From an uncultured Gammaproteobacteria bacterium (lineage in GTDB: Bacteria > Pseudomonadota > Gammaproteobacteria > SZUA-229), in assembly GCA_963803185.1 (NCBI GenBank), contig CAWDMF010000013.1, positions 12,067 through 76,066 of the forward strand: a stretch of DNA of 64,000 nucleotides. Direction: 5' to 3'. Below the pieces are notes generated by a model. That model saw only the letters and a program-made list of their open reading frames with translations. It was not told where the DNA came from and made no database searches. Both the position numbers and the translations under genes were made by a program. This document shows positions 2,520-39,087 of the stretch, in pieces. Position 1 is the stretch's first letter, and every line of letters starts with the position of its first letter.

Positions 2520-2539
2520 TGTCTTATAAAGAAGTATTG

Positions 2540-3358: not shown

Positions 3359-3372
3359 TAGTTACTCAAATA

Positions 3373-3445
3373 TTAGTTGTATGTTTTAAGTTGTATGTTA
3401 TAGGTTTTTAACTGCTAACTTAAAACTTTCAACTTATAACTAATG
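3373..3445. repeat. AT-rich inverted-repeat element (family 2: AAGTTGT/AACTTAT heptamer arms)
   Basis: gttgtatgttttaagttgtatgtta ... taacttaaaactttcaacttataac arms flanking short spacer; related copy at 7479-7608. Confidence 0.6.
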
Positions 3446-3447
3446 TT

Positions 3448-4137: not shown

Positions 4138-4143
4138 ACAATT

Positions 4144-4665: not shown

Positions 4666-4690
4666 CTCTATTCAATCCTGCTGTTCTGGC

Positions 4691-6169
4691 CTACTGAGCT
4701 GGTTTATTAGCTTTTTTCCTGCCTGGCGAGCGGCGAGACCTGGCACCACTTGCCGATCGTTTTTTCGGCGTGGAAAACAGTAGCTTTCTCTGTTGCTCTG
4801 CTGTCTGTTGCTGTATCTCCGTCCACCATTGACAGTCCTGTTGTAAATTGTCATCCGCAGTGTCTTCAACTGCTTGCGCACGAATACATAAAAAATCATA
4901 TCCCGCGCGAAATTTTTCGTGCTCTAATACAGCTATTGCACGTTTTCCTGCACGATAATGAAACCGGGTTTGCAAGCCCCAGATATCCCGCATGGTTGAA
5001 GTAAATCGCTTGGGTATCGAAACACTGGCCGCTTGTTGGCTTAATATTTTAGTCGCTACCTTTTGTATGGCAACAGAGTACGGCATACCCTTAGCAACAA
5101 TTTCTTTGGTGCGTGAGTTCACTGGCTGCCATAACAATGCTGCCAGTAAAAAGGCAGGTGTAACACGCATGTCATTTTTAATACGATCATCGGTGCTTTT
5201 CATGGCGATGAACAGCACCTTTTTAACACTTTCATCCTGCTTGATCGATTTATCTGCCTCGGGAAACAAATATTGAAGTAAATCAAATTCCAGTAGCAAT
5301 TCAAAACTACGAACAGCGTTGCCCGAATGAAACAGTTTTAATACTTCTTCATACAACCTGGCGGCGGGAATATCATTCAATAAATGGCCCAATTCGTAAA
5401 TCGGTAATTTACTGGCTTCATCAATAGCAAAATCCAGCTTGGCTGAAAAACGAAGCGCACGTAACATTCTTACCGGATCTTCTCGATAACGGGTTTCTAC
5501 ATCACCAATTAAATGCAACCGCTTCTGCTTTATGTCCTCAAATCCACCAACAAAATCGATTACACTAAAATCGGAAATATCGTAATACAGGGCATTGGCG
5601 GTAAAATCCCGACGCCAGACATCTTCCGCCAGTTCACCAAAAACATTATCTCGAACAATACGACCGCTTTCATTCTGGATACCCGATGGTGTGAGATCAT
5701 GACTAGCGCGATAGGTGGCGACTTCGATAATCTGCCGGCCAAAATGAACATGTGCAAGTCGAAAACGACGACCAATTAATCGACAGTTACGAAATAATTT
5801 ATTTACCTGCTCCGGTGTGGCATCAGTCGCCACGTCAAAATCTTTTGGTGTAAGACCCAACAATAAATCACGGACCGCACCACCAACCAGGCAGGCGTGG
5901 TAACCGGCTTTATGCAAACGATACAAAACTTTTAACGCGTGATCATCGATGTTGTCGCGCGAGATGCCATGCTCGCCACGACTAAAAATAACCACATCAT
6001 GGCTTACCGAATTTTTCGCTGTACTGCTTGCTGTAGTGCGCTTTGTTTTACTTGCCGTCTTGCTTTTTGCCTTTCTTTTATTCGGACGATCACCGGCAGC
6101 ATGCGGCACTGAAGGTGACCGCTTAGATGACGAGTGTTTTTTCTTTAATGACTTTATCCAGTTCAGCAT
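4691..6169 (-). CDS. pcnB: poly(A) polymerase I (start codon uncertain)
   Basis: LVGGAVRDLLLG...DFDVAT nucleotidyltransferase head, basic C-terminal tail, 492 aa. Confidence 0.85.
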   Translation of the reverse strand: MLNWIKSLKKKHSSSKRSPSVPHAAGDRPNKRKAKSKTASKTKRTTASSTAKNSVSHDVVIFSRGEHGISRDNIDDHALKVLYRLHKAGYHACLVGGAVRDLLLGLTPKDFDVATDATPEQVNKLFRNCRLIGRRFRLAHVHFGRQIIEVATYRASHDLTPSGIQNESGRIVRDNVFGELAEDVWRRDFTANALYYDISDFSVIDFVGGFEDIKQKRLHLIGDVETRYREDPVRMLRALRFSAKLDFAIDEASKLPIYELGHLLNDIPAARLYEEVLKLFHSGNAVRSFELLLEFDLLQYLFPEADKSIKQDESVKKVLFIAMKSTDDRIKNDMRVTPAFLLAALLWQPVNSRTKEIVAKGMPYSVAIQKVATKILSQQAASVSIPKRFTSTMRDIWGLQTRFHYRAGKRAIAVLEHEKFRAGYDFLCIRAQAVEDTADDNLQQDCQWWTEIQQQTAEQQRKLLFSTPKKRSASGARSRRSPGRKKANKPAQ

Positions 6170-6247
6170 GTTTATATCAATCTTTCTTAATCAGCATCTT
6201 TAATCCAGCTTTTTTTATTAATCCCGCTTCTATTAATCCCGCTTCTA

Positions 6248-6916
6248 TTAATCAATTTCTTTCAATATCAAGGTTAAGCCATCACCGATGGTGAGCAGAC
6301 TTTGACTGACACGATCATCATCTTTTAGCATGTCGTTAAAACGGCGAATGGCGCGCGTTCCAGGTTCCTTATTTTCAGTATCTGCAACTGCACCCGACCA
6401 CAAGGTGTTATCGACAGCAATGATTCCACCTTTTCTCAACAGGCGTAGTGCCATTTCATAATACATGATGTAGTTTTGCTTATCGGCATCAATAAAAATA
6501 AAGTCAAATGACTTTTCGCCGCCATCATCAAGCAACATCTGTAATGTCTGCTCTGCCGGCTGGATATGTAAATCAATTTTATTCTCTAGCCCAGCCAAAA
6601 CCCAGTACTTTTTGGCAATGTCTGTCCACTGTGGTGATATATCACAACAGATCAGCTTGCCATTTTCAGGCATGGCGCTGGCGACACAGATTGAGCTATA
6701 ACCGGTAAAAGTACCAATCTCGATGGCACATTTTGCCCCCATCAATTTAATCAACAATGACATAAACTGACCCTGCTCAGGCGAAATTTGCATCACAGAA
6801 TACTCTATTTTTGCGGTTTCTTCACGCAACTGTCGCAACAGCTCTGGCTCATTAATAGAAACGTCACAAAGATAGTCGTAGATGCGGTCATCAATTGACA
6901 GCGTTCGATTGCTCAA
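6248..6916 (-). CDS. class I SAM-dependent O-methyltransferase (caffeoyl-CoA OMT-like); likely TTG/alternative start near 6916, long ORF to 7000
   Basis: IEIGTFTGYSS ... FDFIFIDADK motifs of O-methyltransferase family 3. Confidence 0.7.
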   Translation of the reverse strand: MSNRTLSIDDRIYDYLCDVSINEPELLRQLREETAKIEYSVMQISPEQGQFMSLLIKLMGAKCAIEIGTFTGYSSICVASAMPENGKLICCDISPQWTDIAKKYWVLAGLENKIDLHIQPAEQTLQMLLDDGGEKSFDFIFIDADKQNYIMYYEMALRLLRKGGIIAVDNTLWSGAVADTENKEPGTRAIRRFNDMLKDDDRVSQSLLTIGDGLTLILKEID

Positions 6917-7039
6917 GAAAAAACACCCTGAAAAAACTCGATTTATAATTAATCGAAAATTATACCAAAAACAGAGACTTATAACACGGCGTAGTGCCAA
7001 TATTTGTTATATATACTCAGCCGAAACGCTTTATGACTA

Positions 7040-7474
7040 TTACAAAGGTAATTTTATTGTACCATTCAGTCGATATTCACAGTAATCCTGCAGAATCTGC
7101 CGATGATCAAATGCCAGTTCAACATCGACATTAAATGGATCAAACAACGCAATATCTTTAGCATCATCAGCTGCAACAGGTTTTCCAGCGGCACTGCCAA
7201 CAAATACAGCACAGGCCGTATGCCCTCTAAAGTCACGCTTGGGGTCTGAATAAATACCAAGCAAAATATCAAGATCGACTTCCAGGCTGGTCTCTTCAAG
7301 CGCCTCACGCTGTGCTGCAGTTGCAATGGTTTCCCCGACTTCAACAAACCCACCTGGAATTGCCCAGCCATAAGGTTCGTATTTCCGTTCAATAAGGACA
7401 ATCGGCTTATCATCGAACATTGGTATTTCAATGATGACATCGGCGGTAATGAGTGGCGTGACAGGTTTGGTCAT
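7040..7474 (-). CDS. NUDIX hydrolase
   Basis: [24 protein letters not shown] Nudix box, 144 aa. Confidence 0.75.
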
Positions 7475-7478
7475 TTTA

Positions 7479-7608
7479 TTAGTTGTAAGTTTTAAGTTTT
7501 AAGTTCATTGTAAAAAAACCGTTATAATTATCAAGCAGTTTTATATTATTAACTTGCAACTTTTAACTTACAACTTAAAACTTATAACTTATAACTTATT
7601 TTTAAAGT
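7479..7608. repeat. AT-rich inverted-repeat element (family 2), overlaps last codons of hslR
   Basis: gttgtaagttttaagttttaagtt ... aacttacaacttaaaacttataacttataac inverted arms around 60-bp spacer. Confidence 0.6.
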
Positions 7609-7975
7609 TTCGCAACTGCTCGCGTTCATGCTTACCGGGTTTACGCTTTGGCACCGGTCTCGTGGCTGAAGCCAGTTTTTTCATTTTCTGTTCCTGCTCA
7701 CGTTTTAACCGACTTAGCTCAGATTCTTCATAGCTTAAACAAGCTTCTTTCGCCGGTCGCCGCGTTTTATTGATGCCGGTAATGGTCACTTCATATAAAT
7801 CATAATTTTTCTGAATAGATAAAACATCACCTATTTTGACCAGCCGCCCGGCTTTAACGCGCTGTCCATTTAAATGAACCTTACCACCATTAACAGCATT
7901 ACTAGCCAATGCCCGAGTTTTAAAAAATCGAGAGGTCCACAACCACTTATCAATTCTAATTCCGTCTTTTGTCAT
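7589..7975 (-). CDS. hslR: ribosome-associated heat shock protein Hsp15 (S4 domain)
   Basis: IRIDKWLWTSRFFKTRALA S4 RNA-binding N-terminus, basic C-terminal tail. Confidence 0.75.
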   Translation of the reverse strand: MTKDGIRIDKWLWTSRFFKTRALASNAVNGGKVHLNGQRVKAGRLVKIGDVLSIQKNYDLYEVTITGINKTRRPAKEACLSYEESELSRLKREQEQKMKKLASATRPVPKRKPGKHEREQLRNFKNKL

Positions 7976-7989
7976 ATGCCGTTATTTTG

Positions 7990-8952
7990 TCAGATTAATA
8001 AAGCTATCCCAACGATGCCTAATAGCCACCACCAAAGACTGCTACTTTCCTGTTCAGGCTTTTCAGGCTCTTTAAGCTCTGTTTTTACCACAGGTTTAAT
8101 CACACCCGGTTTAATTTTCATTTTCCTGGGCACCGCTTTTGGCAATGGCACATAAGCGGTTTCACCTTTGGCGATGACTTCATTTCCCGCTTCATTATGC
8201 ACATTAACCAGGCCTTTGATCACTTCCAGATAAAGCCCGTCATCTGCATCAATGGTACCGCCACAGCCTTTGGACTGGAATACTCGCAAGGCATATTCTG
8301 TGCCACGCACACCAACACTGGCTAGCGGTGTTTTTAACTCATAAACATCTTCTGTCATTTTCCCGATCTTGCCGGTTATTTTTTTCAAACTGCCCTGTAG
8401 TAAATTCAGGATACTTTTGCGATTGCTGTTATTTAACGCGTATTCTTCAATCACCATAATACTGAAACACCTCAAATCCAGTATGGCTTCATCAATCATA
8501 CGAAGACGCACAGAACCGTTTTCGCCAGTAACAACCTTGTCACCTAAAAAGACCGGGGAACCAGTTGATAATTCTCGTGACACTTTCCTTTTATCAACCG
8601 CAATCACACTACCACTGTTTTCTACGACAATCCCTACCTGTTGTCTTTTTACCGGTTTTACCGGCTCAGAACGAACCACAACTTTTTGCGGTAAAGTCAG
8701 GCGCACACCTGCTTTCATCTGCGTTGGATCATTATTGATAAACGCATGTGGATTTTGTCGTACGATATCGTTAGTTATTTTCGGCCACTGTTTTACCCGA
8801 TTGGGATATAACTGTTTAACGATATTATGCAGTGTTTGCCCTTTTTGCACATGCAGATAGCGGATATCAGTGTTATAGGCTTCTTTGGCGAATGAGACCG
8901 ATGGATGAAAACCGAGTACAAATAAAAAAATCAATAACTTAACTAGGAACAT
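7990..8952 (-). CDS. secreted LysM-like/FecR-domain protein with C-terminal TM anchor
   Basis: Signal peptide, LHVQKGQTLHNIV LysM-like segment, FecR-like core (GDKVVTGENGSVRLRM), C-terminal hydrophobic helix. Confidence 0.5.
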   Translation of the reverse strand: MFLVKLLIFLFVLGFHPSVSFAKEAYNTDIRYLHVQKGQTLHNIVKQLYPNRVKQWPKITNDIVRQNPHAFINNDPTQMKAGVRLTLPQKVVVRSEPVKPVKRQQVGIVVENSGSVIAVDKRKVSRELSTGSPVFLGDKVVTGENGSVRLRMIDEAILDLRCFSIMVIEEYALNNSNRKSILNLLQGSLKKITGKIGKMTEDVYELKTPLASVGVRGTEYALRVFQSKGCGGTIDADDGLYLEVIKGLVNVHNEAGNEVIAKGETAYVPLPKAVPRKMKIKPGVIKPVVKTELKEPEKPEQESSSLWWWLLGIVGIALLI

Positions 8953-9076
8953 CTTTACTTTGGAGAGGTAGTTTGAATACTCAAAGTATAGCTATAGATG
9001 TTCTGTTTTTGAGAAATTCTTTACAATAATGCTAAGGAACCTCTGAATAAGTCATGAATCGACATCTTGTGATTAA

Positions 9077-9153
9077 AATGGCCTGCTTCAAGGCGTGTAA
9101 CGCGCGTAATAGCAGGGCTATTGCGAAGTTTCACAACGATGAAGCAGGCCATT
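9077..9153. repeat. hairpin (14-bp stem aatggcctgcttca / tgaagcaggccatt, about 45-nt loop)
   Basis: seen directly in sequence downstream of htpG. Confidence 0.5.
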
Positions 9154-9198
9154 TAACCGACAATCTGTTCGAACCAGACTTAATCAGAGATTCCCTAA

Positions 9199-9407
9199 AA
9201 CTTATTTAGTCCACGAAGCACGCACTAAAATGCCGGGAGCATTTTGAACGTACGCTAGTACGGTCCGAAGGACGTAGCACAGGAGGCGCGTAGTAAAACA
9301 CGCAAATATTTTTAAGCTAAAAAAAGCTTTTATCTGTGTTGACATGCAGGGATAGCGCTAATGTAGCCTGCGCATGGAGCGCAGGAGCTACCATCTGCGT
9401 GCATCTG
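9199..9407. repeat. degenerate copy of family-1 palindromic element (GAACGCAAAT-type)
   Basis: left arm ttatttagtccacgaagcacgcac, right arm catctgcgtgcatctgtggac resemble arms of copies at 14381, 22848, 53418. Confidence 0.45.
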
Positions 9408-16560: not shown

Positions 16561-16827
16561 TTAAGCAGAAGCTTCCAGGTTTGTATTAGCTTTGGCCTGT
16601 TTAATCAGTGTAGAAACACGATCAGATGTTTGCGCACCCAGAGATTTCCAGTGTGTTACACGATCAATGTCAACCACCAGTCGTTGCTCACCACCGGTAG
16701 CACCCGGATTAAAATAGCCTAAACGCTCAATATAACGACCATCACGAGATCGTCGTGAGTCTTTAACATCAATATGATAAAAAGGCTTTTTCTTGGCACC
16801 GCCTCTTGATAAACGTATTGTTACCAT
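16561..16827 (-). CDS. rpsP: 30S ribosomal protein S16
   Basis: [21 protein letters not shown]... Confidence 0.9.
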
Positions 16828-17045
16828 TAGTCACTCTCAAAATTCTTTAAATAAATGACCTTTCGGTCACAGGAAACCGCGCATTTTACGTGATTATTTC
16901 GCTAGATGGAAGCCTGATTTACGGATAAAAACAAGAATGATTAACCGCCGAGACGCAGAGGCATAGAGAAAAACCTTAAATAGTCGGCGAATAAAGCTTC
17001 CGCATCCTGCTCACGCCCCTTACCTACGTACATCTAGGCAACGCG

Positions 17046-17211
17046 AAAGGCGCAAATGAACGCAAACAAATGCAAATTAAAAATTTCTTTTATTCTTTTG
17101 CAGGTTGGGCGCTGCCCACCGAAATGCCGGCAGTATTTATAGAGAAGGCGCACAATGCCCGCCTTACCAATCTACGCTTTTAAATATTGGCGTTCATTTG
17201 CGGACTACTAG
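17046..17211. repeat. degenerate family-1 palindromic element between ffh and rpsP
   Basis: gcgcaaatgaacgcaaacaaatgcaaat ... ggcgttcatttgcggactac. Confidence 0.55.
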
Positions 17212-27843: not shown

Positions 27844-28448
27844 ACGTAGCTAATACAAAAAAAACATATGTGTTAAGCCCGCTTTTTTATCAGCTGGCAA
27901 GCAATGCTACGATAAACCATTGCTAATGCCTGATGCATTGCTTTTGCATAACGGGCAAACAAATAGCGCTGCTCACAAGGAAAGCTGATACCCCATTGGT
28001 GTCCAGGCTCATCAGCTTATACTTCATCGACGAGTAAAGTGGCACTCTCAGGCATATGCCTGGCGCCAACAGAAAGCACAACAGAAAGGGAAAGCTCAGT
28101 GCCACGTGATGTTCGGCGTGGCAGGTCTCGCAGCACAACCGCAGCAAGCCCTGTTCCAGGTAGCTGCATTTCAGTAGTCGCCGATCCATACCCGCTGGAC
28201 GTAACCGGGCAAATCCTGGATATGCCATAAAAAGGTCGCGGGCAGTGTACCGCTGGCATTTTAATCTTATGTTGCTGCCGTACCAGTACTCTTGCAAAGT
28301 GATGCTAACCTGCTCTACTTCAGGCTTCCGGGCTTTCGCCTTTCGGGCCAACCATTGGTTGTTCAAAATCGCTGCCGACGATTTTGTCGCGGCAATGACA
28401 GCTAAGCGGTAAAGCAGTGCGGGAATTCCTTTTTTATTCGCTGCCGGT

Positions 28449-28878
28449 TTACCTGTGGCAGTCCCGGCAGCTGTCATGCGGGCCCGTGGGGAGGCTCTGC
28501 TCATGCCGATGTTTATGGCAGCCGGTGCAAAGGCCATGGAATGCTTGCTGCGCGTTGCGCACCGGTGGTTCAGCGTCGTTCACCGAATCGGGCTCGGCTT
28601 TCCTGATATTGGCGATGCTGAAATACCTGGCCTGGTGGCAGGCTATAACAGCTGCGAACAGGCTCGTCCTTAGTGCGCAACGTATGGTGGCAGGTGACGC
28701 AGCGTACACCTTCGAGGTCACTGTGGCGCTGGTGGGCGAAGGTTACCGGACCGAACTTGGGCGTCAGGGTGATCTCGGCCTTTTCGGGCGGGATAGCGTC
28801 AGTCGCGGTCACCAGCGCCGGCGCAAGCCCAAAAAATAGAACGAACCAGCGCAACCGATTTGGGGCAGCTGGCCGCAT
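28449..28878 (-). pseudogene. c3-type tetraheme cytochrome c with Sec signal peptide, interrupted by an apparent 1-nt insertion near 28640 inside the second heme motif (CYSCH)
   Basis: Frame A (28878->28570): MRPAAPNRLRWFVLFFGLAPALVTA...VTFAHQRHSDLEGVRCVTCHH...RSCYS; frame B (->28449): ...AFHGLCTGCHKHRH...DSCRDCHR; deleting one C restores CYSCH giving four CxxCH. Confidence 0.5.
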
Positions 28879-28894
28879 CTGCACGCAGCTCGGG

Positions 28895-30277
28895 CTAGAA
28901 GTAATAACGAACACGGAATTCCAGCTTGTAGTTGTTGGGCTTTTCTCCCCACTCGGTGAGCTGATCGCCAATAGGCGCAATCAGTCGTAGCCGTAGGTCC
29001 AGGTTATCGACGCCTTCGTAGTTCAGCTCAGGCGAAACCGAGTAGCTGTTATCCAGCAAGTTGTAGAGCACCTGGAAACCCGGCGTGAAATAAAGGATGT
29101 TGTAGGGCTCTCTCCACCAGGCACGCAGGTGAAAATACTGGCGCATGGGATTGGGTTTGGTGAATGGACCCTTGTCGACGTCTTCGTCGAGGGGCAGTCC
29201 GGCCAGCAGGTCCGGATCGCCGGCGTCCCAGGCGCGGTGAACGCATTCGTAAAACTGCCGCTGATCCTGTTCCCGGTTTCCGGCGCCGTTGTAATAATAT
29301 TCAGCGATCCAGGTGACATCGTTCTCGGTTCGGTAGCGCAGCCCGAGTAGAGAGCTGATTTTGTCATCTGGCGCCTCCCGTGTGAATTTGCAATCCGGGG
29401 TTATGTTGTGCAGCGACACATCGGTGAGGTAAGCGAGTTCGCCGTGGACCGCAAAATTGGTGGTGATGTTACTGGCAAAATCCATGCCGTAGCGTGCTGT
29501 CTTGCTGCCTTCACTGAGGAACAGGAAATCGATGTCAGTGTTCTGGTACAGCAGGTAAAGCTTGGCCGCGTAGTTGGTGAAGCCTTCCTTGCCGAAGTCA
29601 TTATTGATGCTGCCGCGGTTCGGCAGTACCAGTGGCGTTAAGGCAACGGTCTTCAGCCGGCCGCCGAAGGTCTTTATATAATCGAAGCCGGCGATCCAGA
29701 AGCCCTCGCGCGCAAGATCGGGATTACCGGCGTCCTTGGCCCGTTCAACAAATGCGACGGGGTTCCACGCGTAGCCGGTGCCCCAGCGATAGGCCTTCTT
29801 GCCCATGTCAAAGCTGAAGCCGGGATCAGGCTGCAGGTTCAGCAGGCCCTCGTACAATATGGTTTCGCCGCTTTCGTCGGTGTAATCCCAGGTCTTGCTG
29901 GTATGAGTGCGGAAAGACAGGGTGGTGATGCCCCGCCGGTAGCGACCATCGAGTTCGAGTACGGCCGGCAGGCGGGAGATGCTGTCGCGCGGCTGTTCGT
30001 CGAAGAACTGCAGCTGGTACAGCGCACCATCCTGGTTGCTCTGTGCATAATTCGGCTCGATCTCGGCGTAACCGCGCAGCACGAATGGTTTGGCCTCAAA
30101 TTTTTCGACGTCGAAGGTGAACTCGTCGGCACCCAGACCCGGCATCGACGTCACCACACAGGCGGTGGCAATCAAGACTCCTGCATGCCGACGGAGGCTA
30201 GCTCGTGTCAATAGCCCAGTCGCCCGCCCCCCTCTTTCCATACCGCTAAGAACCATGGGTGCTGGCAGTTGAGTCAC
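28895..30277 (-). CDS. outer-membrane beta-barrel protein (GTG start overlapping upstream stop; mature start probably internal after signal peptide)
   Basis: 460 aa, signal-like LIATACVVTSMPGLGA, alternating amphipathic strands rich in Y/W/G, C-terminal ...EFRVRYYF aromatic terminus typical of OM barrels. Confidence 0.55.
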   Translation of the reverse strand: MTQLPAPMVLSGMERGGRATGLLTRASLRRHAGVLIATACVVTSMPGLGADEFTFDVEKFEAKPFVLRGYAEIEPNYAQSNQDGALYQLQFFDEQPRDSISRLPAVLELDGRYRRGITTLSFRTHTSKTWDYTDESGETILYEGLLNLQPDPGFSFDMGKKAYRWGTGYAWNPVAFVERAKDAGNPDLAREGFWIAGFDYIKTFGGRLKTVALTPLVLPNRGSINNDFGKEGFTNYAAKLYLLYQNTDIDFLFLSEGSKTARYGMDFASNITTNFAVHGELAYLTDVSLHNITPDCKFTREAPDDKISSLLGLRYRTENDVTWIAEYYYNGAGNREQDQRQFYECVHRAWDAGDPDLLAGLPLDEDVDKGPFTKPNPMRQYFHLRAWWREPYNILYFTPGFQVLYNLLDNSYSVSPELNYEGVDNLDLRLRLIAPIGDQLTEWGEKPNNYKLEFRVRYYF

Positions 30278-31014
30278 CGCAGCTCCTTCACCTTCGGCAT
30301 GTAGTTGAGCGTGAACACCTCGTCCGGAAAATCGCGGGCCTGGACTTTTGCAAACAGCATGACCGCCTTGTAGCCCTTGTACAGAGGGCTGTCGGTCTCG
30401 AGCATGGAAGGCCGCCGGATACCGTCGCCGAAGTCCTTGATTTCGCTGTAACGGAGCCGCTTGATCAACAAACCGCTGGCAGCGAAAGCCTCAATCGACA
30501 GCGGTAGCAGGGAACTTTTATCCACCACCATAGCCAGGCGATCATAGGCCACGGAGCCCGTCCTGGCCTTCAGTGACAGCTTGTAGTTGTCAGCCACTTC
30601 CTCGATGGTCTCGACGTTGTATTCAGTGCTGAACTCCAGTCGCATCAAGTCGGAATTATTGAAGATGCCGCCAACGACCGATTGCAGGCTGGTGATGCGG
30701 ATCGGTTTGCCCACATCGGGGATGAACAGCCACATGTTGTCGCCACGGCGAAGGGTGGTGCGACCGGCGTCGGTGGACGGCTCCAGGAACAACGCAACCA
30801 TGCTGTCACGACCTTTTTTGGCGGTATATAAGACGAATTCCTTGCGCTTACCGTCCGGTTCAACATTGATGAGTTTGCGATACATCTCGTACGACTCGGG
30901 GGCCAGGTTGCGATCCACCTGTTGCAGAATCGACTGCCCGTCAACAGCGTGGACACTGGCGGCGGCGCACAGCAGGATCACTACAGCCAGCAAGATTGGT
31001 CGCCTCATGTTCAC
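30274..31014 (-). CDS. periplasmic LolA-like (outer membrane lipoprotein-sorting protein family) carrier protein
   Basis: 246 aa with signal peptide MNMRRPILLAVVILLCAAASVHA; size/composition and operon context with MacB-type ABC typical of LolA-like proteins. Confidence 0.4.
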   Translation of the reverse strand: MNMRRPILLAVVILLCAAASVHAVDGQSILQQVDRNLAPESYEMYRKLINVEPDGKRKEFVLYTAKKGRDSMVALFLEPSTDAGRTTLRRGDNMWLFIPDVGKPIRITSLQSVVGGIFNNSDLMRLEFSTEYNVETIEEVADNYKLSLKARTGSVAYDRLAMVVDKSSLLPLSIEAFAASGLLIKRLRYSEIKDFGDGIRRPSMLETDSPLYKGYKAVMLFAKVQARDFPDEVFTLNYMPKVKELR

Positions 31015-31409
31015 TCGCCCCTCAATTCCTTGGCGACATCTTCGACAGTGCCACTGCGGCGGACAAAGCGTACTTTGCGTGCAACCATGACGTCCTCCAT
31101 CTTGGGCCCGACCATACCGCCGACGAGCACTGAGACACCCTTGTCGGCGAGTGTGGTGGCTGCCGCCGGTCCGATGCCGAACTCGAGATCAAGGTGGGGA
31201 TTGGCAAGGACCTCGATGGCTTTACCGTTGATATCGTAGAGGTGGAAATAGGGCGAAATGCCTGACAGCTTGCTGATCGACGACGTCAGTTCGGCACCCT
31301 CTGCCGCTATAGCGAAGTTATCGGCTTTGTAGGCGTCGGCTTCTTCGGCCGCAAAGGTCGACGTCAGCGTAAGGGTGACTAATGCGAAAAAGGAAAGTAC
31401 TCTGATCAT
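31011..31409 (-). CDS. secreted NifX/NafY-like dinitrogenase FeMo-cofactor-binding domain protein
   Basis: Signal peptide MIRVLSFFALVTLTLTSTFA; APYFHLYD...GKAIEVLAN and FGIGPAAATTLADKGVSVLVGGMVGPKM match PF02579 consensus (apyfliyd / ggaGi.aa.lL...gvdvv.tg.iGp). Confidence 0.55.
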   Translation of the reverse strand: MIRVLSFFALVTLTLTSTFAAEEADAYKADNFAIAAEGAELTSSISKLSGISPYFHLYDINGKAIEVLANPHLDLEFGIGPAAATTLADKGVSVLVGGMVGPKMEDVMVARKVRFVRRSGTVEDVAKELRGE

Positions 31410-31468
31410 AATGTTTCTCCTGGTGAAGACACAAACTCGCCGCTATCCAGCATGTTCGTATCCGGGGT

Positions 31469-32905
31469 TCATACGTGCCTTAATGCCTTGATCGGGTTCA
31501 TCCGCGAGGCCTTCCAGGCGGGCTGTAAACTTGCCAGGACCGCGACGAGTATGGTCAGCAGCCCGGTGATAATGACATCGGAGGCGGATATTGAGGGTAC
31601 CAGGATGAGATTATCCTGGCGCCCGAAGGCGATAGTGAAGGTCATCCGGTTGGCGATCCCAATGGCAGCAAGGCTGATCGCGGTCCCGATCACCGTCCCG
31701 ACGAAACCAAGAAGGAAACCCTCGCTGACGAACAGCGCCAGGATCGTAGCAGGTTTTGTGCCAATGGCGGAGATGGTGCCAATCTCCCGGATGCGTTCAT
31801 ATACTGCCATGATTAACACGTTCATGACGCTGATCAATACCACAGAAATCAGGATAATCCGGATGAACAGGGTCATCAGGTCTATCATGTCAGCAATCTT
31901 GGAAAACGGCACGAATTTCTGCCAGGGGTGTATCTGAAAAATGGTCAGCCCACGGCGGTTTTTCAATTCAGCGACTTTGGCCTCGAGACTGGCGAGCGTA
32001 ATTTCCTGCATGCCGCGATCACGCAATCGGATCGCGATCTCACTGACCTCGGAAGGTTGTCCCCAGCCTCTTTCGCTGAACAGCTTGCGCGTTGCGGGCA
32101 AAAACTCGTCGGTATCAGTGAGCGGAACCGGTGGTTGCTCGGCCAGTGCCGCGTCTCGCTTCAATTTGAGGCTGTCAACGGGGGCTTCGGCCGGCGCCTC
32201 GGCATAACCAAGACCCGCAAGTAATTCCTGTTCGACCGCCTGTTCCTCTATGCGCAGGAGTTCGCGCGCGTCGTCGATATGGAGGTAGCCGTCTCGACCG
32301 CCCGGACCGGAGATACTCTCAAGGATGCCCTGTACCACAAAGGTCTTGCCATTGACCGAACCGTCCTTGTTGGTTGCCACCAGCACAACGGTATCACCCA
32401 CCTTGACTTTCATGCCGTTGGCGATGAGCTCCGGGACCTGGATTTTGCCTTTTTCCACCAGGGGTGAGGACGTGCCGCCGGCGAACACCCGCTGGGTGAC
32501 CTGTGGCACGGTGGCGACCTCGCGATCGGGGTAGACGCCGTTGAGTCGGATGCTGGTGGTGCTGGCGAAATTGCTGAACATGGCCATCAACTTGATCCGC
32601 GGCGACCACGCCTCGATCTCGTCGGTTTCGTCAAGGCTCTGGTAAAGCTTGACCAGCATTCGTGGCCGCATGTTGCGATCGACGGGCAGGCTTTCCATGG
32701 CACCGACATAACCGCGACGGTGAACCTGGAGGTGTCCCACCATGGAGTCGGTGAATTGCGATACCATCATGGTCTTGAACGAGCCGGCAACCGCGATAAA
32801 TAGTAACACGGCTACCAGGCCCACGGTGATCAGAAGCGAGGTCAGAATAGTGCGTCGCTTGTAGCGCAGCAGGTTGCGACCCGCGATCTTGAGTACGTCA
32901 TTCAT
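31469..32905 (-). CDS. ABC transporter permease, FtsX/MacB/LolCE-type with about 300-aa periplasmic domain (ORF extends to 33028 but probable start MNDVLKIAGRNLLRYKRR at 32905)
   Basis: N-terminal TM, large periplasmic domain, C-terminal 3 TM helices ending ...SLQPAWKASRMNPIKALRHV typical of FtsX family. Confidence 0.75.
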   Translation of the reverse strand: MNDVLKIAGRNLLRYKRRTILTSLLITVGLVAVLLFIAVAGSFKTMMVSQFTDSMVGHLQVHRRGYVGAMESLPVDRNMRPRMLVKLYQSLDETDEIEAWSPRIKLMAMFSNFASTTSIRLNGVYPDREVATVPQVTQRVFAGGTSSPLVEKGKIQVPELIANGMKVKVGDTVVLVATNKDGSVNGKTFVVQGILESISGPGGRDGYLHIDDARELLRIEEQAVEQELLAGLGYAEAPAEAPVDSLKLKRDAALAEQPPVPLTDTDEFLPATRKLFSERGWGQPSEVSEIAIRLRDRGMQEITLASLEAKVAELKNRRGLTIFQIHPWQKFVPFSKIADMIDLMTLFIRIILISVVLISVMNVLIMAVYERIREIGTISAIGTKPATILALFVSEGFLLGFVGTVIGTAISLAAIGIANRMTFTIAFGRQDNLILVPSISASDVIITGLLTILVAVLASLQPAWKASRMNPIKALRHV

Positions 32906-33602
32906 GGCTTGCACCCTCATCTTTTGTCTGCCGTCGCACATGGCCGTCCTCGAGTACGAAGGTCTCCTCAGCCTCGGCCATGATCTTGGGATCGTGCGTC
33001 GAGAACACGAAGGTGGTACCAAATTCATCCCGGAGTTGTCGCATCAGCCCGATGATCCGGAGGGCCGTTGAGCGATCGAGATTCGCGGTTGGCTCGTCGG
33101 CAAGCACCAGCCTGGGATTCGTCACCAGGGCGCGGGCCACGGCGACCCGCTGCTTCTGGCCACCGGACAGCTGATCGGGACGTTTATCGGCCTGGTCAGA
33201 GATACCCGCTGCGGCCAGCAGGCTAAGGATCCGCTCGCGGCGACGCTGCAGGGGCCATTTCTGCACCATGATCAGCGGGTATTCCACATTCTCGTATACC
33301 GTAAGCACAGGAATAAGATTGAAGTCCTGAAAGACGAAGCCGATGTTCTCTCCACGGAATACCGCTGCTGCGTGATGGTCGAGTGTCGATACGTCCGTGC
33401 CGCTGACGGTGAGGCGGCCATCGGTCGGTGGATCGAGGCAGCCGATCATGTTGAGCAGCGTACTCTTGCCGCTTCCGGAGGGCCCGACGAAGCAAACGAA
33501 TGATGCCGGCTCGATGCTAAAGTCGACGCCGCGAATCGCGTGGACCGTCACATCGCCGGTGCGGTAATCCTTAACCAGATTTTCTGCGGTCACCAGGCTC
33601 AT
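32898..33602 (-). CDS. ABC transporter ATP-binding protein (MacB/LolD-type)
   Basis: Walker A GPSGSGKSTLLN, signature LSGGQKQRVAVARAL, Walker B LVLADEPT, H-loop; 234 aa. Confidence 0.85.
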   Translation of the reverse strand: MSLVTAENLVKDYRTGDVTVHAIRGVDFSIEPASFVCFVGPSGSGKSTLLNMIGCLDPPTDGRLTVSGTDVSTLDHHAAAVFRGENIGFVFQDFNLIPVLTVYENVEYPLIMVQKWPLQRRRERILSLLAAAGISDQADKRPDQLSGGQKQRVAVARALVTNPRLVLADEPTANLDRSTALRIIGLMRQLRDEFGTTFVFSTHDPKIMAEAEETFVLEDGHVRRQTKDEGASHE

Positions 33603-33706
33603 TGCCTGTCTCTCCTGTCTATCTGCGCGTCAGCCTTTTTCCTGCCCGTGGATCCCGCCTGCGGAGGTGCAAAGTCCAGTATCTCATCCAGGGCCCTCAT
33701 TACCGG

Positions 33707-34357
33707 CTATTTCTTCAGCTTTAACGGGTGTAACTGCTTGAGCAAGCCGGGTTCAGGTTCTTCGTCGTGGAGGTAACCTGGCGGCGGATAGATGGTCTCA
33801 CAAGTCCCCTCTTTGACCTCGGCCAATTCCCGCTGCGTCATGCAGACGTCGTAATTGCCAGGGCCACCATCCAGCTTGCCGTATCCGGGTCCATCCCACA
33901 ATACGTCAAAATCGCCCTCTCCGCCATAGAGCTGGTCGTCACCCGGCGCGCCAAACAGCCAGTCGTCACCGGGGCCGCCGTAAATGATATCAACACCGCG
34001 CGCGCCAAACAGGGAGTCAATGCCGGGGCCACCGCACAGGATGTCGTCCCCTGCGTCGCCGTGGACGACGTCGTTGCCAGGACCGGCGACGATGACATCA
34101 TTTTCGTCGCTACCCAGTATCAGGTCATGACCGGTAGTGCCCACACAAGTGGCTTTCTCGCCATGACAGAGCGGCACTTCGCTCAGGCCTGGCGGAAGAT
34201 AGGGGCACTTGATTACAGTATGAGCGGTCGTGTAGTCGGGGAAGGCTTCCTTGGTCACTTCGGGGCCCGCCGCCGTGGACATCGCGGCTAACGCGACGCT
34301 GATCGCAACAGCGATTTCGAAAAGACAAGAAACTCGGGATGATGATAAAACGCACAT
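33707..34357 (-). CDS. secreted RTX-like calcium-binding beta-roll protein (hemolysin-type GGxGxD repeats) with N-terminal Sec signal and Cys-containing flanks
   Basis: tandem nonapeptides GGPGIDSLF GARGVDIIY GGPGDDWLF GAPGDDQLY GGEGDFDVL; N-terminal hydrophobic signal, no C-terminal T1SS-type signal evident. Confidence 0.6.
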   Translation of the reverse strand: MCVLSSSRVSCLFEIAVAISVALAAMSTAAGPEVTKEAFPDYTTAHTVIKCPYLPPGLSEVPLCHGEKATCVGTTGHDLILGSDENDVIVAGPGNDVVHGDAGDDILCGGPGIDSLFGARGVDIIYGGPGDDWLFGAPGDDQLYGGEGDFDVLWDGPGYGKLDGGPGNYDVCMTQRELAEVKEGTCETIYPPPGYLHDEEPEPGLLKQLHPLKLKK

Positions 34358-34708
34358 TTTTTTATTCTCCTAATGTCATTTTTATTATTGTCCTTACAGT
34401 TGTTAAGTATACTCCCACTTTTCTAACGACATCAACCCTTCGGCTTCATTCTTTTGCAAAATTCAACCAATGCTCATCAGCTTTATTGCTGGTCAACAAT
34501 TTGTCGTACGAATACCCGATGTGCAGCTGACAGAATTCACCGATGCATTAACGCACGGCGAGATATTGCTGATGGCCGATGTATCACTTTTCGTGTTGCT
34601 GAAATTGAAAATCTTGTTCATAAGCAGCATCCAGAAGCGGCAGTTAGTGGTATAAGCTGGACAATGGATGGTTTCGGTATTTAACCTGGAGATTTTAAAA
34701 TAGCCGGG

Positions 34709-36058
34709 TTAAATAACCAAAAAATAGCCTGAACCAACAGCAGCGCATGCAGCAATTACGGAAACAATACCCGCTTTATATCTAAACAGGGCAATAAACG
34801 CTGCCGCACCGATGAAAGCTGAAAACCACTCAAAGTGGCCATCAAAACCTTGCGGCCAAAGCACATGGTAAGCAAAAAAAGTGGCAAGATTAAGAATGAC
34901 ACCAACCACCGCTGCGGTTATGCCGGTTAACGGGGCCGTAAACTTAACATCATCTCTGGTCGCTTCAACAGCGGGACCACCTAACAAAATAAAAAGAAAA
35001 GAAGGTAAAAAAGTAAACAAGGTGGCAATGCCTGCGCCTGCCGCGCCAGCTAAAAGTAACGAGTCAGGTCCAAAAATTTCTTTTGTCCAGGCGCCAACAA
35101 AACCCACAAAAGCCACAACCATAATCAGCGGTCCGGGTGTGGTTTCACCCAGGGCCAGGCCATCAATCATCTGGCTTCCGGTTAGCCATTGATATTGCTC
35201 AACACCACCTTGATAAACATAAGGTAAAACCGCATAAGCACCACCAAAAGTCACCAGTGCGGCTTTAGTAAAAAACCAGCTCATTTGTGTAAGCGTGCCC
35301 TGCCAGCCGTAAGCATTGATCAACATGATCATTACCGCGCCAGCAATGAACAGACCTATCAAAGAAAAAACCAGAAACCGGCCCCACTTAAACTGTGCAT
35401 GTTCAGGTGCGGGTGTGTCGTCATCAATAATGGCAGGCCCGTATGTCTCCTTCGAGGCACCATGGCCTGCACCCGCTTTAAAATGCTCAGGCGAAACATA
35501 GGACCCTATATAGCCGATTAAACCTGCCGCTAATACAATGTAAGGAAAAGATATCTCAAAAGCAAAAATAGCAATGAAGGCCAGTACAGCCATGAGACGC
35601 AGCACATTATTTTTTAACGCCCTGGAACCAATGCGGTAAGCAGCAAAGACCACTATCGCGGTAACAGCTGGTTTAATGCCGTATAAAACACCTTCAACCA
35701 CCGGCACATCACCATAAACCAGGTAAATCCATGTCAGACCAATAAGAATAAAAAGTGACGGCAGCACAAATAAAACACCCGCAGCAATACCACCCCAGAC
35801 ACCATGCATTAACCAGCCGATATAAGTTGCCAGCTGCTGCGCTTCTGGTCCAGGCAGTACCATGGTGTAATTAAGAGCATGCAAAAAACGATGTTCAGAA
35901 ATCCACCGGCGCTTTTCTACCAGCTCCTGATGCATCATGCTTATCTGGCCCGCTGGTCCACCAAAACTGATAAATCCTAACTTAAGCCAGTACATAACGG
36001 CTTCGAAAAATGAAACGGGCTCAGGTTGCCCTGTTAATTCCTTTGTATTTGAAGCCAT
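34709..36058 (-). CDS. chrA: chromate ion transporter ChrA (CHR family, two-domain); ORF extends to GTG at 36112
   Basis: FISFGGPAGQISMM...LPGP and second-half FGGAYAVLPYV motifs. Confidence 0.8.
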   Translation of the reverse strand: MASNTKELTGQPEPVSFFEAVMYWLKLGFISFGGPAGQISMMHQELVEKRRWISEHRFLHALNYTMVLPGPEAQQLATYIGWLMHGVWGGIAAGVLFVLPSLFILIGLTWIYLVYGDVPVVEGVLYGIKPAVTAIVVFAAYRIGSRALKNNVLRLMAVLAFIAIFAFEISFPYIVLAAGLIGYIGSYVSPEHFKAGAGHGASKETYGPAIIDDDTPAPEHAQFKWGRFLVFSLIGLFIAGAVMIMLINAYGWQGTLTQMSWFFTKAALVTFGGAYAVLPYVYQGGVEQYQWLTGSQMIDGLALGETTPGPLIMVVAFVGFVGAWTKEIFGPDSLLLAGAAGAGIATLFTFLPSFLFILLGGPAVEATRDDVKFTAPLTGITAAVVGVILNLATFFAYHVLWPQGFDGHFEWFSAFIGAAAFIALFRYKAGIVSVIAACAAVGSGYFLVI

Positions 36059-36790: not shown

Positions 36791-37942
36791 CTATTCCAGG
36801 TGCTCCGCCAAAACGTTTCTTAACTGCTCAGCCAGGGCGGTACTGTATACATCACCATCATCATCGGTTGCTTGTGAATTTTCGGCATCTTTAACTTCGA
36901 TTTGAATAACACCACCCATGTCGGTGAACTCAAGACGATATTGTCGGTTTTTATTTAATGCAATATTTTTTTCATCTGAATCAGTGAATAATTGCATTAA
37001 CCAGCTGGATTGGGACAAATCATCATCGTCTTCTTCTATCTTAAGTTCTTCTGAAGAAATTTTGCTAACACCAAAGTTAATCATATTGTTGGCTTTATCT
37101 TCAATAATATTCTGCATTCGCATGCGATCCAGTGCACGCATCGACCGGCGCCAGACAAAATCCATACTGCCCTTCATGGTCAACGCGATTGTATTTGTGC
37201 TATCAATTTTTATCAGTGAACTATAAGGACGATAGTTTTCCAGCAATGCTACAGACTGCTCTTTGCTTAAACCGGCAAATACAGCCATGCGAGAAATAAT
37301 CTCGCGCTCCGCTTCTAAATTGCTTGGTTGCGATACCCAGATATATTCATCAGCAAATTCACCACGAACCTGGCGCTCGATTCTCGAATGTGCAACGTAT
37401 ATGCGCGTTTTACGGTCAAGATCAAAACGTTCAACACGGAGGCGAAATTTATCTTTTACGTCCGGTTCAAATTTCTGGAACATCGATCTGAAAAAGCCTT
37501 TTTCATCACCTAGCCGTTCTGTCCAGTCGGTTTCCATAAAACCAAGTAATGGGCGCTTCTCCACCAGCTCTATACCTTCTGCCTCCCAGAATTCAAGCAA
37601 TCTTGGCCACACTTTTTCGACCTCGTTATCAACTTCAATCCAGCTGCTGCCGGCAAAACTCACCATGCGTACGCCATCAAATTTCGGCGTGATCACGGTA
37701 TCCAGCTTGTTATTATCACGAAATTGCTGCAGCGCTTCTTCTGTAGGTTTCGCCACTCTAAGCTCATCAGCGGTATCCGGTTCGGTTAGATCAGGCGGCA
37801 CTTCCAGATTTTTATAATATTCTGCTCCCTGATAAACCGGGCGCTCATCACCACCGAACAGGCCACAGGATGCGCTGCTTAGTGCCATCAAAACCAAACC
37901 GAGATACTTCAACGTATCAAACATCGTACTATATAACCTCAT
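36791..37942 (-). CDS. bamC: outer membrane protein assembly factor BamC (NlpB lipoprotein)
   Basis: lipobox LSSASC after signal, downstream of dapA as in E. coli, 383 aa with acidic linker. Confidence 0.75.
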   Translation of the reverse strand: MRLYSTMFDTLKYLGLVLMALSSASCGLFGGDERPVYQGAEYYKNLEVPPDLTEPDTADELRVAKPTEEALQQFRDNNKLDTVITPKFDGVRMVSFAGSSWIEVDNEVEKVWPRLLEFWEAEGIELVEKRPLLGFMETDWTERLGDEKGFFRSMFQKFEPDVKDKFRLRVERFDLDRKTRIYVAHSRIERQVRGEFADEYIWVSQPSNLEAEREIISRMAVFAGLSKEQSVALLENYRPYSSLIKIDSTNTIALTMKGSMDFVWRRSMRALDRMRMQNIIEDKANNMINFGVSKISSEELKIEEDDDDLSQSSWLMQLFTDSDEKNIALNKNRQYRLEFTDMGGVIQIEVKDAENSQATDDDGDVYSTALAEQLRNVLAEHLE

Positions 37943-37972
37943 TAATGATGTACTCCGACCGGCTTTGCTGGT

Positions 37973-38848
37973 CTATTGTGTCGCCTGCTGCATGGCTTCC
38001 CGCAGTGGCTGATGGAATTCTTCTGCAAATTCTATCAACGGCAGACGTATGCCAGGGAGAATAAGTTTCATTTCAGACAGCGCCCATTTTACGGGGATCG
38101 GGTTGGCTTCAAGAAATAACCGGGTATGCAACCCGGTTAAAGGCTGGTTTATGGATTCCGCTAGCGCACGATCACCTGCCAATGCAGCTTCGCACATTGC
38201 CGCCATGGCTTTAGGCGCAACATTGCTGGTCACTGAAATAACCCCATGACCACCACGCAGCAAAAACTCGGTCCCGGTTGCATCATCACCACTGTACAAA
38301 CCAAATGCCGCACCATCCAGCAATGCCTGGGTCTCGGCGAGACGATCCAGATCGCCAGTGGCATCTTTAAGGCCGACGATGTTATCAATTTCAGATAGTC
38401 GCTTAACCGTTTCAGGCAACATGTCTACCGCGGTACGGCCTGGGACGTTATACAGGATTTGTGGGATATCAACCGTCTCAGCAATTTTTTTATGGTGTAA
38501 ATACAGGCCCTGTTGCGGTGGTTTATTGTAATACGGCGTGACCAGTAAACAGGCATCTGCACCACCTTGCTGGGCACAGCGCGTGAGTTCTATCGCTTCC
38601 CAGGTTGAATTAGCACCGGTACCGGCAATAACAGGAATACGGCCTTTAACCATTTCCACTGTGCGAGCCATCACCTCGCAGTGTTCGTCCATATTCAGTG
38701 TCGCAGATTCACCCGTCGTGCCCATTGACACAATCGCCGAGGTGTTATTTTCTATATGAAATTCAACCAGTTTAGCCAAACTTTGATAGTCGACACTGCC
38801 GTCAAGATGCATCGGCGTAACCAATGCAACCATACTGCCACGAAACAT
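37973..38848 (-). CDS. dapA: 4-hydroxy-tetrahydrodipicolinate synthase (ORF extends to 38890; probable start [12 protein letters not shown])
   Basis: [10 protein letters not shown]...GTTGES...Schiff-base Lys region, 292-305 aa. Confidence 0.9.
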
Positions 38849-39087
38849 GCCAAGAGTATTCATTAAAGGCCCCAAGAAAAGAAGGCGCACAGTTAATCAA
38901 TATTTCAGCTTTATTTCAATGATTTATCTTGCCAAATACAATTATTTTACTAGTCTTTATTTGAGGCCTTTAAGCGACATACTTTGGATAGTGACAAATC
39001 CATTGCAATACTTAGCCTATGCATAGCACCTGATTTTTCAGGTCAGATACAGAGTCATTCAAAAATTGAACAAAATGGGACACACAA

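Follow-up and report, generated by a model that had tools for sequence, protein, structure and literature searches.

A horizontally acquired gene cassette encoding a putative Lol-like relay to the outer membrane in an uncultured gammaproteobacterium

Background

ATP-binding cassette (ABC) systems of type VII, such as MacB, LolCDE, and FtsEX, perform mechanical work in the periplasm and do not move their substrates across the inner membrane. In many phyla it is a question how hydrophobic cargo arrives at the outer membrane when neither LolB nor a TolC duct is available, and three described systems come close to it. In Castellaniella defragrans, AmeABCD, comprising a LolA-superfamily protein, a barrel, and a resistance-nodulation-division (RND) pump, is needed for monoterpene tolerance (PMC6394551). 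The Borrelia cluster BBJ23-BBJ29 encodes a MacB-like ABC system, a LolA-like protein, and an Omp85 barrel, for which ATP-driven transport of non-polar ligands from the inner to the outer membrane was proposed on computational grounds (PMC13078400). For the type VII ABC system YbbAP-TesA, a third report proposes extraction of hydrophobic compounds out of the inner membrane (PMC12646458). Here, we describe an operon carried by a stretch of 64,000 nt, referred to as the window, from an uncultured gammaproteobacterium of the SZUA-229 lineage (assembly GCA_963803185.1, contig CAWDMF010000013.1, positions 12,067 to 76,066 of the forward strand). Its genes encode a repeats-in-toxin (RTX) protein, an ABC ATPase, a MacB/FtsX-type permease, a NifX-like protein, a LolA-like protein, an outer-membrane beta-barrel, and a cytochrome c3-type protein, and an earlier note made from the letters of the window had read them as a candidate envelope-spanning pathway.

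Results and discussion

A conserved four-gene core

A survey with one genome per species recovered at least 581 cassette loci, and a comparison set of 88 loci was compiled; 83 non-redundant loci served for counts of neighbouring genes. When the seven proteins were mapped by tblastn onto the 88 loci, the genes for the ATPase, permease, LolA-like protein, and barrel were colinear and shared one strand wherever a locus had enough upstream DNA, and on long contigs the gene order was RTX, ABC, MacB_PCD/FtsX, Nitro_FeMo-Co, PF17131, and barrel. Since the identical order recurred across about 80 independent loci, the arrangement is not due to chance, and because only the ATPase, permease, LolA-like, and barrel genes were universal, these four constitute the core. 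The carriers belonged to Gammaproteobacteria, Betaproteobacteria, Desulfobacterota, Nitrospirota, Planctomycetota, and Methylomirabilis, that is, at least six phyla or classes; the best 80 loci of the survey included Chromatiales-like Gammaproteobacteria, Thiobacillus, Sulfurisoma, Sulfuricaulis, Gallionellales, and Rhodocyclaceae, together with the Desulfobacterota Geobacter, Desulfuromonas, and Trichloromonas. Identities across loci ranged from 59% to 92% for the ATPase and from 54% to 90% for the LolA-like protein, while the permease varied hardly at all at its N-terminus, and the LolA-like protein and the barrel hardly at all at the N-terminus of the mature protein.

No fifth universal partner or cargo family emerged from unsupervised clustering of 1204 open reading frames (ORFs) from the 88 loci or from Pfam scans of 280 neighbours, and no conserved lipoprotein gene accompanied the core among the clustered neighbour ORFs. 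Likewise, neither an HlyD-type adaptor, a TolC-type outer-membrane efflux protein, nor LolB was found in the island that carries the operon or among the recurrent Pfam families of the 280 ORFs within 3 kb, a negative that for TolC covers the island and the neighbours at related loci. Thus, the composition given in the earlier note, a MacB/FtsX-type ABC system with a LolA-superfamily protein and a dedicated outer-membrane barrel, was borne out by domain matches and conserved colinearity, and so were its statements that a membrane-fusion protein and TolC are missing.

A relay is the simplest model for this composition, because a LolA-fold carrier and a dedicated barrel are present and an adaptor or duct is absent; non-protein hydrophobic or amphipathic cargo is favoured because the core has no lipoprotein gene as a companion and because the organism can do without the cassette (see below). 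On balance, we hold it somewhat better than an even chance, with a probability of roughly 0.55, that the four-gene core and its accessories form a self-contained mobile envelope cassette for the Lol-like relay of non-protein cargo to the outer membrane. No published description of the cassette was found in open-access full text, and on its gene content it is a real, widespread, and previously uncharacterised system built from recognisable parts, which is compact, strongly conserved, transferable, and present in at least 581 species-level genomes.

Departures from the common layout were also seen. The nitrospirotal locus L050 (nt 1712-9278) had two extra FtsX-type permease genes upstream of the ATPase gene, and its LolA-like gene was separated from the barrel gene by an additional ORF of 314 aa; in L006 an additional PF17131 gene and IS21/Y1 transposase genes lay just upstream of the module.

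ATPase, permease, and LolA-like carrier

In the ATPase, the Walker A (GPSGSGKST), signature (LSGGQKQR), and Walker B (LVLADEP) motifs and the H-loop could be read intact. Its best NCBIfam models were LolD, MacB, DevA, and FtsE, all scoring under their cut-offs, for example 212.6 bits against LolD TIGR02211 (cut-off 307.75); the permease scored 89.4 against the LolC/E equivalog TIGR02212 (cut-off 362.45), and the MacB model NF007826 (cut-off 966) gave 196.9 for the ATPase and 44.5 for the permease. Hydropathy placed TM1 (the first transmembrane segment) at about residues 17-49 and TM2-4 at about residues 337-464, so that the periplasmic domain enclosed by TM1 and TM2 comprises about 295 aa, which agrees, as do the FtsX and MacB_PCD matches, with the domain of about 300 aa previously noticed. 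The Protein Data Bank (PDB) sequences matched by the permease were a Streptococcus MacB-like permease, YtrF, MacB, LolF, and LolC/E (E values of 1e-10 to 1e-7). The FtsX C-terminal domain, MacB-like periplasmic core, four-TM topology, and cognate ATPase place the two proteins, as judged by their sequences, in the type VII ABC (MacB/FtsX-fold) superfamily, and a permease homodimer is expected because the cassette has one permease gene only.

The LolA-like protein scored 132.6 bits against PF17131 (TP_0789-like, LolA superfamily; cut-off 30) and matched this model only, not the LolA family model. Its residues 22-241 matched PDB 3BUU over the full length (E = 3e-28), an entry for Nitrosomonas europaea NE2245 deposited as 'LolA superfamily protein'; literature on the function of PF17131 or on NE2243-NE2247 was not found in open-access full text.

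Membership in a superfamily that includes FtsEX could mean that the ABC system transports nothing and drives a change of state in a periplasmic partner, either the LolA-like protein or the barrel. As the partners are a carrier-fold protein and a dedicated barrel instead of an enzyme activator, and the MacB_PCD domain belongs to a subfamily of the transport type, we regard such a mechanical regulator as extremely improbable. The same matches bear on a specialised Lol paralogue, which would extract one class of lipoproteins, or of lipidated or amphipathic proteins, from the inner membrane and pass them via the LolA-like chaperone to the barrel, with the latter acting as an insertase or surface-exposure device. 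Lol models are the best NCBIfam matches of the ATPase and permease, the carrier falls in the LolA superfamily, and the authors of the Borrelia study put forward the same idea (PMC13078400); however, all Lol scores lie far under the cut-offs, the cassette lacks LolB, no lipoprotein gene is conserved alongside the core, none of the RTX, NifX-like, LolA-like, barrel, or cytochrome products has a canonical lipobox, and a cassette that is accessory and horizontally moved is not a housekeeping pathway. A Lol paralogue is thus unlikely.

Outer-membrane barrel

The barrel gene product matched no named family. Among 5.8 billion proteins, 780 homologues were retrieved, none of which carried a name or a Pfam domain. 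A profile search of 1.84 billion cluster representatives gave 1178 members at a threshold of E<=1e-3 and 527 when this was tightened to E<=1e-10, with lengths close to 430 aa in nearly all cases. Scanning of 49 homologues with Pfam at E<=5 yielded sporadic matches to OMP_b-brl, Porin_4, and Porin_O_P only, and none to DUF1302 or DUF1329 even at this threshold. The family is compact and unannotated. An AlphaFold2 model built from an alignment of the 49 sequences (mean predicted local distance difference test score, pLDDT, 84; predicted template modelling score, pTM, 0.77) comprised about 18 long antiparallel strands with a single helical insert, on which the product is predicted to be an outer-membrane barrel, as the earlier assignment had anticipated, with 18 strands. 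A signal peptide at the N-terminus and a C-terminus ending in ...RVRYYF were also present; invariant among the 49 sequences were a WGxGYAWNP loop and many Arg, Lys, and His residues, and the pair Cys296/Cys345 was nearly invariant. With these results and those for the carrier, a genomic context has been assigned to two 'hypothetical' families, PF17131 (PDB 3BUU) and the unannotated barrel.

The closest solved folds were those of Occ, chitoporin, and maltoporin. As these are uptake channels, the barrel might import a poorly soluble nutrient, which would then be carried through the periplasm by the LolA-like protein and delivered to or into the inner membrane with help from the ABC system; in a random barcode transposon sequencing study of fatty acid and alcohol metabolism in Pseudomonas putida, DUF1302/DUF1329 genes were reportedly flagged. 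No catabolic genes recurred beside the cassette, though. Type VII ABC systems such as MacB, LolCDE, FtsEX, and YbbAP are not known as importers, and an uptake route is considered highly unlikely.

NifX-like protein and neighbouring genes

The NifX-like protein scored 48.3 bits against PF02579 (cut-off 26.3) and matched the PDB proteins MTH1175, TM1290, and the Desulfovibrio orange protein 2WFB. In an alignment of 21 sequences, all copies from the module had a signal peptide and no Cys, and shared the motifs EVxxNP[HYF]xD and GxGPxxA..LA..GV. The gene occurred in about half of the loci overall: in all gammaproteobacterial loci with enough upstream DNA except L021, and, at 26% to 42% identity, in a subset of the loci from Desulfobacterota and Planctomycetota. 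No nif genes were found near the cassette loci, a setting distinct from that of cytoplasmic nif proteins. The NifX-like protein is a semi-conserved fifth component with a predicted location in the periplasm, and its ligand could reveal the cargo of the cassette.

The surroundings of the cassette were heterogeneous, but genes of metal(loid) type, at least one per locus, adjoined it in 21 of the 83 non-redundant loci, as raw counts with no genome-wide background. These included ArsR/SmtB (nine loci), ACR3 (five loci), ArsM-like methyltransferases, one of which passes the ArsM model, cation diffusion facilitators (CDF), SaoE/SO_0444-type efflux proteins, and cytoplasmic NifX-like proteins. In some loci, LTXXQ (Spy/CpxP/ZraP-type) genes were located directly upstream of the ATPase gene (for example, L034 nt 4587-5186, from Sulfurisoma sediminicola BSN1), histidine kinases adjoined the cassette in several, and orp-like sets, composed of a PAS-sigma54-HTH_8 activator, a cytoplasmic NifX-like protein, and DUF5320, adjoined it in Geobacter and Planctomycetota loci. 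These neighbourhoods give a weak lead to metal(loid) or envelope stress. Loci with LTXXQ or orp-like neighbours were L034; L032, L039, L045, and L085; and L054, L078, and L079. A neighbour cluster taken for 'sigma54 activators' contained both PAS histidine kinases and enhancer-binding proteins, and the paper on the OrpR regulon contained no link between orp and such a cassette.

The NifX fold binds iron-molybdenum cofactor (FeMo-co) or Mo-Cu-S clusters. The cassette might accordingly serve metal(loid)-sulfur handling or detoxification, the NifX-like protein and a barrel lined with basic residues binding and expelling an anionic cluster or a methylated metalloid with power from the ABC system. 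This is consistent with the location of the NifX-like gene inside the cassette in three phyla with its motifs conserved, the similarity of its product to the orange protein, the neighbours listed above, the many invariant Arg, Lys, and His residues of the barrel, and the origin of the carriers mostly from sulfidic or anoxic sediments. It remains doubtful, since the NifX-like gene is missing in about half of the loci, its product lacks Cys and has only a putative ligand, the neighbour signal concerns a minority of loci without control, and LolA-type cavities are hydrophobic; the adjacency of chrA, which was rejected as a functional neighbour, is coincidental because this gene belongs to the low-GC host backbone. 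A bolder version, to which we give a small chance, is that the core represents an unrecognised class of trans-envelope machine, a mobile Lol-like relay whose type VII ABC motor loads a PF17131 carrier that docks on a dedicated 18-stranded barrel, and whose cargo is a metal(loid)-sulfur or stress-related small molecule, bound by the NifX fold in some lineages, and not a lipoprotein. Were this version true, it would be the first periplasmic role for the fold that binds FeMo-co and a new exit route through the outer membrane in bacteria of anoxic or sulfidic habitats.

Proposed mechanism

For the Lol-like relay favoured here, the following steps are envisaged, in which the components would interact physically and transport would be directed outward, as export. 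The ATPase dimer would drive mechanotransmission via the permease homodimer, whose periplasmic domain would pick up a substrate, either hydrophobic or amphipathic, in the periplasm or at the outer leaflet of the inner membrane and load it into the cavity of the LolA-like shuttle. The shuttle would then cross the periplasm and dock on the barrel, which would release the cargo or insert it at the outer membrane; an integral barrel would thus replace LolB, and a MacA/TolC duct would be unneeded. The most likely cargo would be a lipid or a non-protein small molecule that the cell deals with during envelope or metal(loid) stress, rather than a lipoprotein encoded in the cassette. In these terms, the cassette offers a testable relay model.

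Several points weigh against the relay. Type VII ABC systems can be purely mechanical regulators, as exemplified by FtsEX. The solved folds closest to the barrel are channels for the uptake of water-soluble solutes, and its invariant Arg, Lys, and His residues suggest an anionic, not a greasy, substrate. In addition, the metal and stress signal of the neighbourhoods was present in only about a quarter of the loci and was obtained without a proper background control.

Horizontal acquisition of the island

The guanine-plus-cytosine (GC) content was 0.54-0.62 at nt ~27950-34350 versus ~0.42 on either flank, delimiting an island of 6.4 kb. On one side it was flanked by the chromosomal housekeeping genes ffh, rpsP, rimM, trmD, radA, ispA, dxs, queD, and folE2, and on the other side by chrA, bamC, and dapA. 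The contig L004, which resembles a donor, shared 84.6% DNA similarity from nt 33982, where L004 ends, to nt 28447, right past the cytochrome stop codon, where the homology stopped. Directly downstream of the operon, at the low-coordinate edge of the island, there was a degenerate fragment of an IS91 rolling-circle transposase, which in tblastn was 34% to 41% identical to annotated plasmid transposases of the IS91 family (E = 1e-5, two pieces). The six-gene operon is thus best described, from base composition and homology, as a horizontally acquired high-GC island with a probable donor in a Chromatiales-like clade. The high GC content, the IS91 remnant at its flank, and the absence from relatives (below) had been overlooked in the earlier note.

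The operon lies upstream of the 5' end of the IS91 transposase, and IS91/ISCR elements can co-mobilise DNA on the side of the transposase 5' end by one-ended transposition. The gammaproteobacterial dapA-bamC (NlpB) pair is situated downstream of chrA at nt 36791-38890 and supports a chromosomal rather than plasmid nature of the window.

In a sister contig, L089 (ENA ERZ25039514 contig_31466), which was 97.6% identical to the window over 22 kb, the same island occupied the same site, and since this is an independent assembly, a chimera as the source of the high-GC block was ruled out. The metagenome ERZ25039514 contains this island-bearing host strain (L089) and two organisms (L006 and L008) with apparently native six-gene modules. 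Between the window and L089, the proportion of synonymous differences (pS) was 0.116 in six island genes versus 0.021 in seven backbone genes (about 5.6-fold), and the ratio of the non-synonymous to the synonymous proportion (pN/pS) was 0.11 in the island (149 synonymous and 49 non-synonymous differences) and also 0.11 in the backbone. A pN/pS of 0.11 points to purifying selection on the island genes. The history of the island alleles is in part separate from that of the backbone, and their excess of pS suggests either allele replacement or recombination after acquisition, or independent acquisitions.

The module was missing from the relatives L090 and L091, whose Dxs is 95% identical. Both had retained a remnant (L090 nt 16572-17142; L091 nt 7781-8351), 88.6% identical to nt 28107-28681 of the window and consisting of the IS91 fragment and the 3' half of the cytochrome gene. 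The remnant was separated from folE2 by three unrelated genes, one of them OmpA-like, and the site downstream of folE2 is a hotspot of rearrangement. Because it is missing from these relatives, the cassette is accessory and therefore not the essential Lol pathway of this organism.

No match to the island was found by megablast on PLSDB plasmids or among all complete E. coli genomes, nor to the barrel by tblastn against plasmids; the cassette is thus not known plasmid cargo. For three proteins of the window, identical sequences were sought and none was retrieved. Scans of the whole window for tRNA genes and Rfam families were empty, so that a tRNA-linked integration site is not indicated, and no direct or inverted repeats were found to bracket the island.

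RTX and cytochrome genes

The RTX protein had four RTX nonapeptide blocks, six conserved Cys residues, and a conserved C-terminal PPPGY...PLKLKK tail in an alignment of nine orthologues, all nine of which (9/9) began with a conserved signal-like segment ending in ...AAGP; it is a candidate for Sec export. By tblastn mapping, its gene was confined to the gammaproteobacterial loci L001-L022. The cytochrome gene was present only in L004, L005, L009, L010, and L089. In the window, one extra C near nt 28643 (plus strand), inside the second CxxCH, divides it between two frames, so that the tetraheme cytochrome c previously reported here is broken by a +1 insertion; four CxxCH in a single frame, the feature of class III (c3) cytochromes, were observed only in intact homologues, namely the orthologue of L004 and L005 (156 aa) and that of the sister strain L089, which lacks the extra base and retains a four-haem frame. 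The frameshift is either an error of assembly or an inactivation specific to this strain, which would make the gene a pseudogene.

The RTX, NifX-like, and cytochrome products had also been suggested as candidate cargo. This did not hold: RTX was restricted to one Chromatiales-like clade, the cytochrome to the nearest relatives, and the products lack lipoboxes. Being clade-specific add-ons, the three do not qualify as a cargo common to all versions of the core, and they are lineage-specific accessories added to it, in the Chromatiales-like clade with the cytochrome only sometimes among them.

Operon organization

The seven consecutive minus-strand reading frames at nt 28449-34357, which were all present as first listed, are given in Table 1 with the adjoining features; the domain calls are from Pfam and NCBIfam profile scans of the window proteins.

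Table 1. Features of the island in the window
Feature	Position (nt)	Strand	Match or remark
RTX beta-roll protein, 216 aa	33707-34357	-	PF00353 (HemolysinCabind) x4, E 7.5e-31
ABC ATPase, 234 aa	32898-33602	-	PF00005 (ABC_tran), E 7e-34
MacB/FtsX-type permease, 478 aa from ATG at 32905	31469-32905	-	PF02687, E 8e-16; PF12704, E 8e-9
NifX-like protein, 132 aa	31011-31409	-	PF02579 (Nitro_FeMo-Co), E 1.3e-12
LolA-like protein, 244-246 aa	30274-31014	-	PF17131 (LolA_like), E 1.7e-38
Predicted outer-membrane beta-barrel, 460 aa	28895-30277	-	No family in Pfam or NCBIfam
Cytochrome c3-type gene, frameshifted	28449-28878	-	Cytochrom_CIII / Cytochrome_C7 fragments in frames 28570-28980 and 28449-28721
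IS91-family transposase N-terminal fragment	27923-28420	-	tblastn and weak ISCR (insertion sequence common region) match
Candidate operon promoter, AT-rich	34358-34440	-	Two sigma-70-like hexamer pairs; consensus matches only

The families named beforehand for the individual products, PF17131, FtsX, MacB_PCD, PF02579, and HemolysinCabind, were all matched by the expected proteins, while DUF1302 and DUF1329, also put forward, had zero matches among the window proteins in the Pfam scan. Two of the three junctions described as 4-nt overlaps were indeed so: the NifX-like stop codon overlaps the GTG of the LolA-like gene (GTGA, nt 31014/31011), with an alternative ATG two codons after this GTG that is the start in the gene call of L089, and the LolA-like stop codon overlaps the GTG of the barrel gene (GTGA, nt 30277/30274), with an AAGGAG motif 5 nt upstream. 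The third, between the ATPase stop codon and the permease ATG (nt 32905/32898), is an 8-nt overlap (ATGAATGA). Gaps of 57 nt separate the permease from the NifX-like gene and 104 nt the RTX from the ATPase gene, and a Shine-Dalgarno-like motif precedes every gene of the operon. These overlaps and short gaps, with the recurrent gene order at related loci, upheld the description of a tightly packed single unit. Hydropathy revealed N-terminal hydrophobic signal-like segments in the RTX, NifX-like, LolA-like, barrel, and cytochrome products.

The region containing the candidate promoter, with the Shine-Dalgarno motif ahead of the RTX gene, is also the junction of island and host. Between chrA and this AT-rich region, a 30-nt imperfect palindrome over the chrA stop codon (nt 34672-34721) may be a terminator or a regulatory site.

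Comparison with known systems

Judged by profile matches and gene content, the cassette belongs to the type VII ABC and LolA superfamilies but falls outside LolCDE/LolA/LolB, MacAB-TolC, the DUF1302/DUF1329/RND systems, and type I secretion of RTX proteins. It differs from the last in that the RTX protein has an N-terminal signal-like segment, the neighbouring ABC system is of type VII, and there is no membrane-fusion protein. The barrel shares its predicted 18-strand fold with the OprD/Occ porins and other 18-stranded channels, without sequence membership in Pfam OprD or other porin families.

With LolCDE-LolA-LolB, the cassette has in common a type VII ABC system with separate ATPase and four-TM permease and a soluble carrier of the LolA superfamily, and, in the model proposed here, a relay in place of a duct. 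However, its ATPase and permease score far under the LolD and LolC/E equivalog cut-offs, its carrier belongs to PF17131 and not to LolA, a predicted 18-stranded barrel stands in place of LolB, and there is a single permease gene; moreover, Lol is essential and vertically inherited, whereas the cassette is accessory and horizontally transferred. MacAB-TolC resembles it in the MacB_PCD and FtsX architecture of the permease and the LolD/MacB-like ATPase, but the nucleotide-binding domain of the cassette is not fused to the permease, and a barrel of another fold and a LolA-like protein are found instead of a MacA-type fusion protein and TolC. As in YbbAP-TesA, a type VII ABC system would hand hydrophobic molecules to a periplasmic partner, although the partner in that system is a lipid hydrolase, and neither a LolA-like carrier nor an outer-membrane barrel belongs to it.

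The closest parallel is AmeABCD with the related DUF1302/DUF1329/Ycf48-like/HAE3-RND cassettes, in which each cassette likewise combines an inner-membrane pump with a periplasmic LolA-superfamily protein and a dedicated outer-membrane barrel and is required to tolerate hydrophobic compounds (PMC6394551). The motor in the present cassette is, however, a type VII ABC system and not an HAE3 RND pump, its barrel shows no DUF1302 signal, its carrier belongs to PF17131 instead of DUF1329, and it contains no Ycf48/BNR or RND genes. The Borrelia cluster BBJ23-BBJ29, by analogy of composition, is the nearest published idea: the Borrelia barrel is of the Omp85/BamA-like type and is accompanied by chaperones, in contrast to the Occ/AlgE-like 18-stranded barrel predicted here, and the accessory genes and taxa are unlike those of the cassette, but both unite a MacB-like type VII ABC system with a LolA-like protein and a dedicated outer-membrane barrel.

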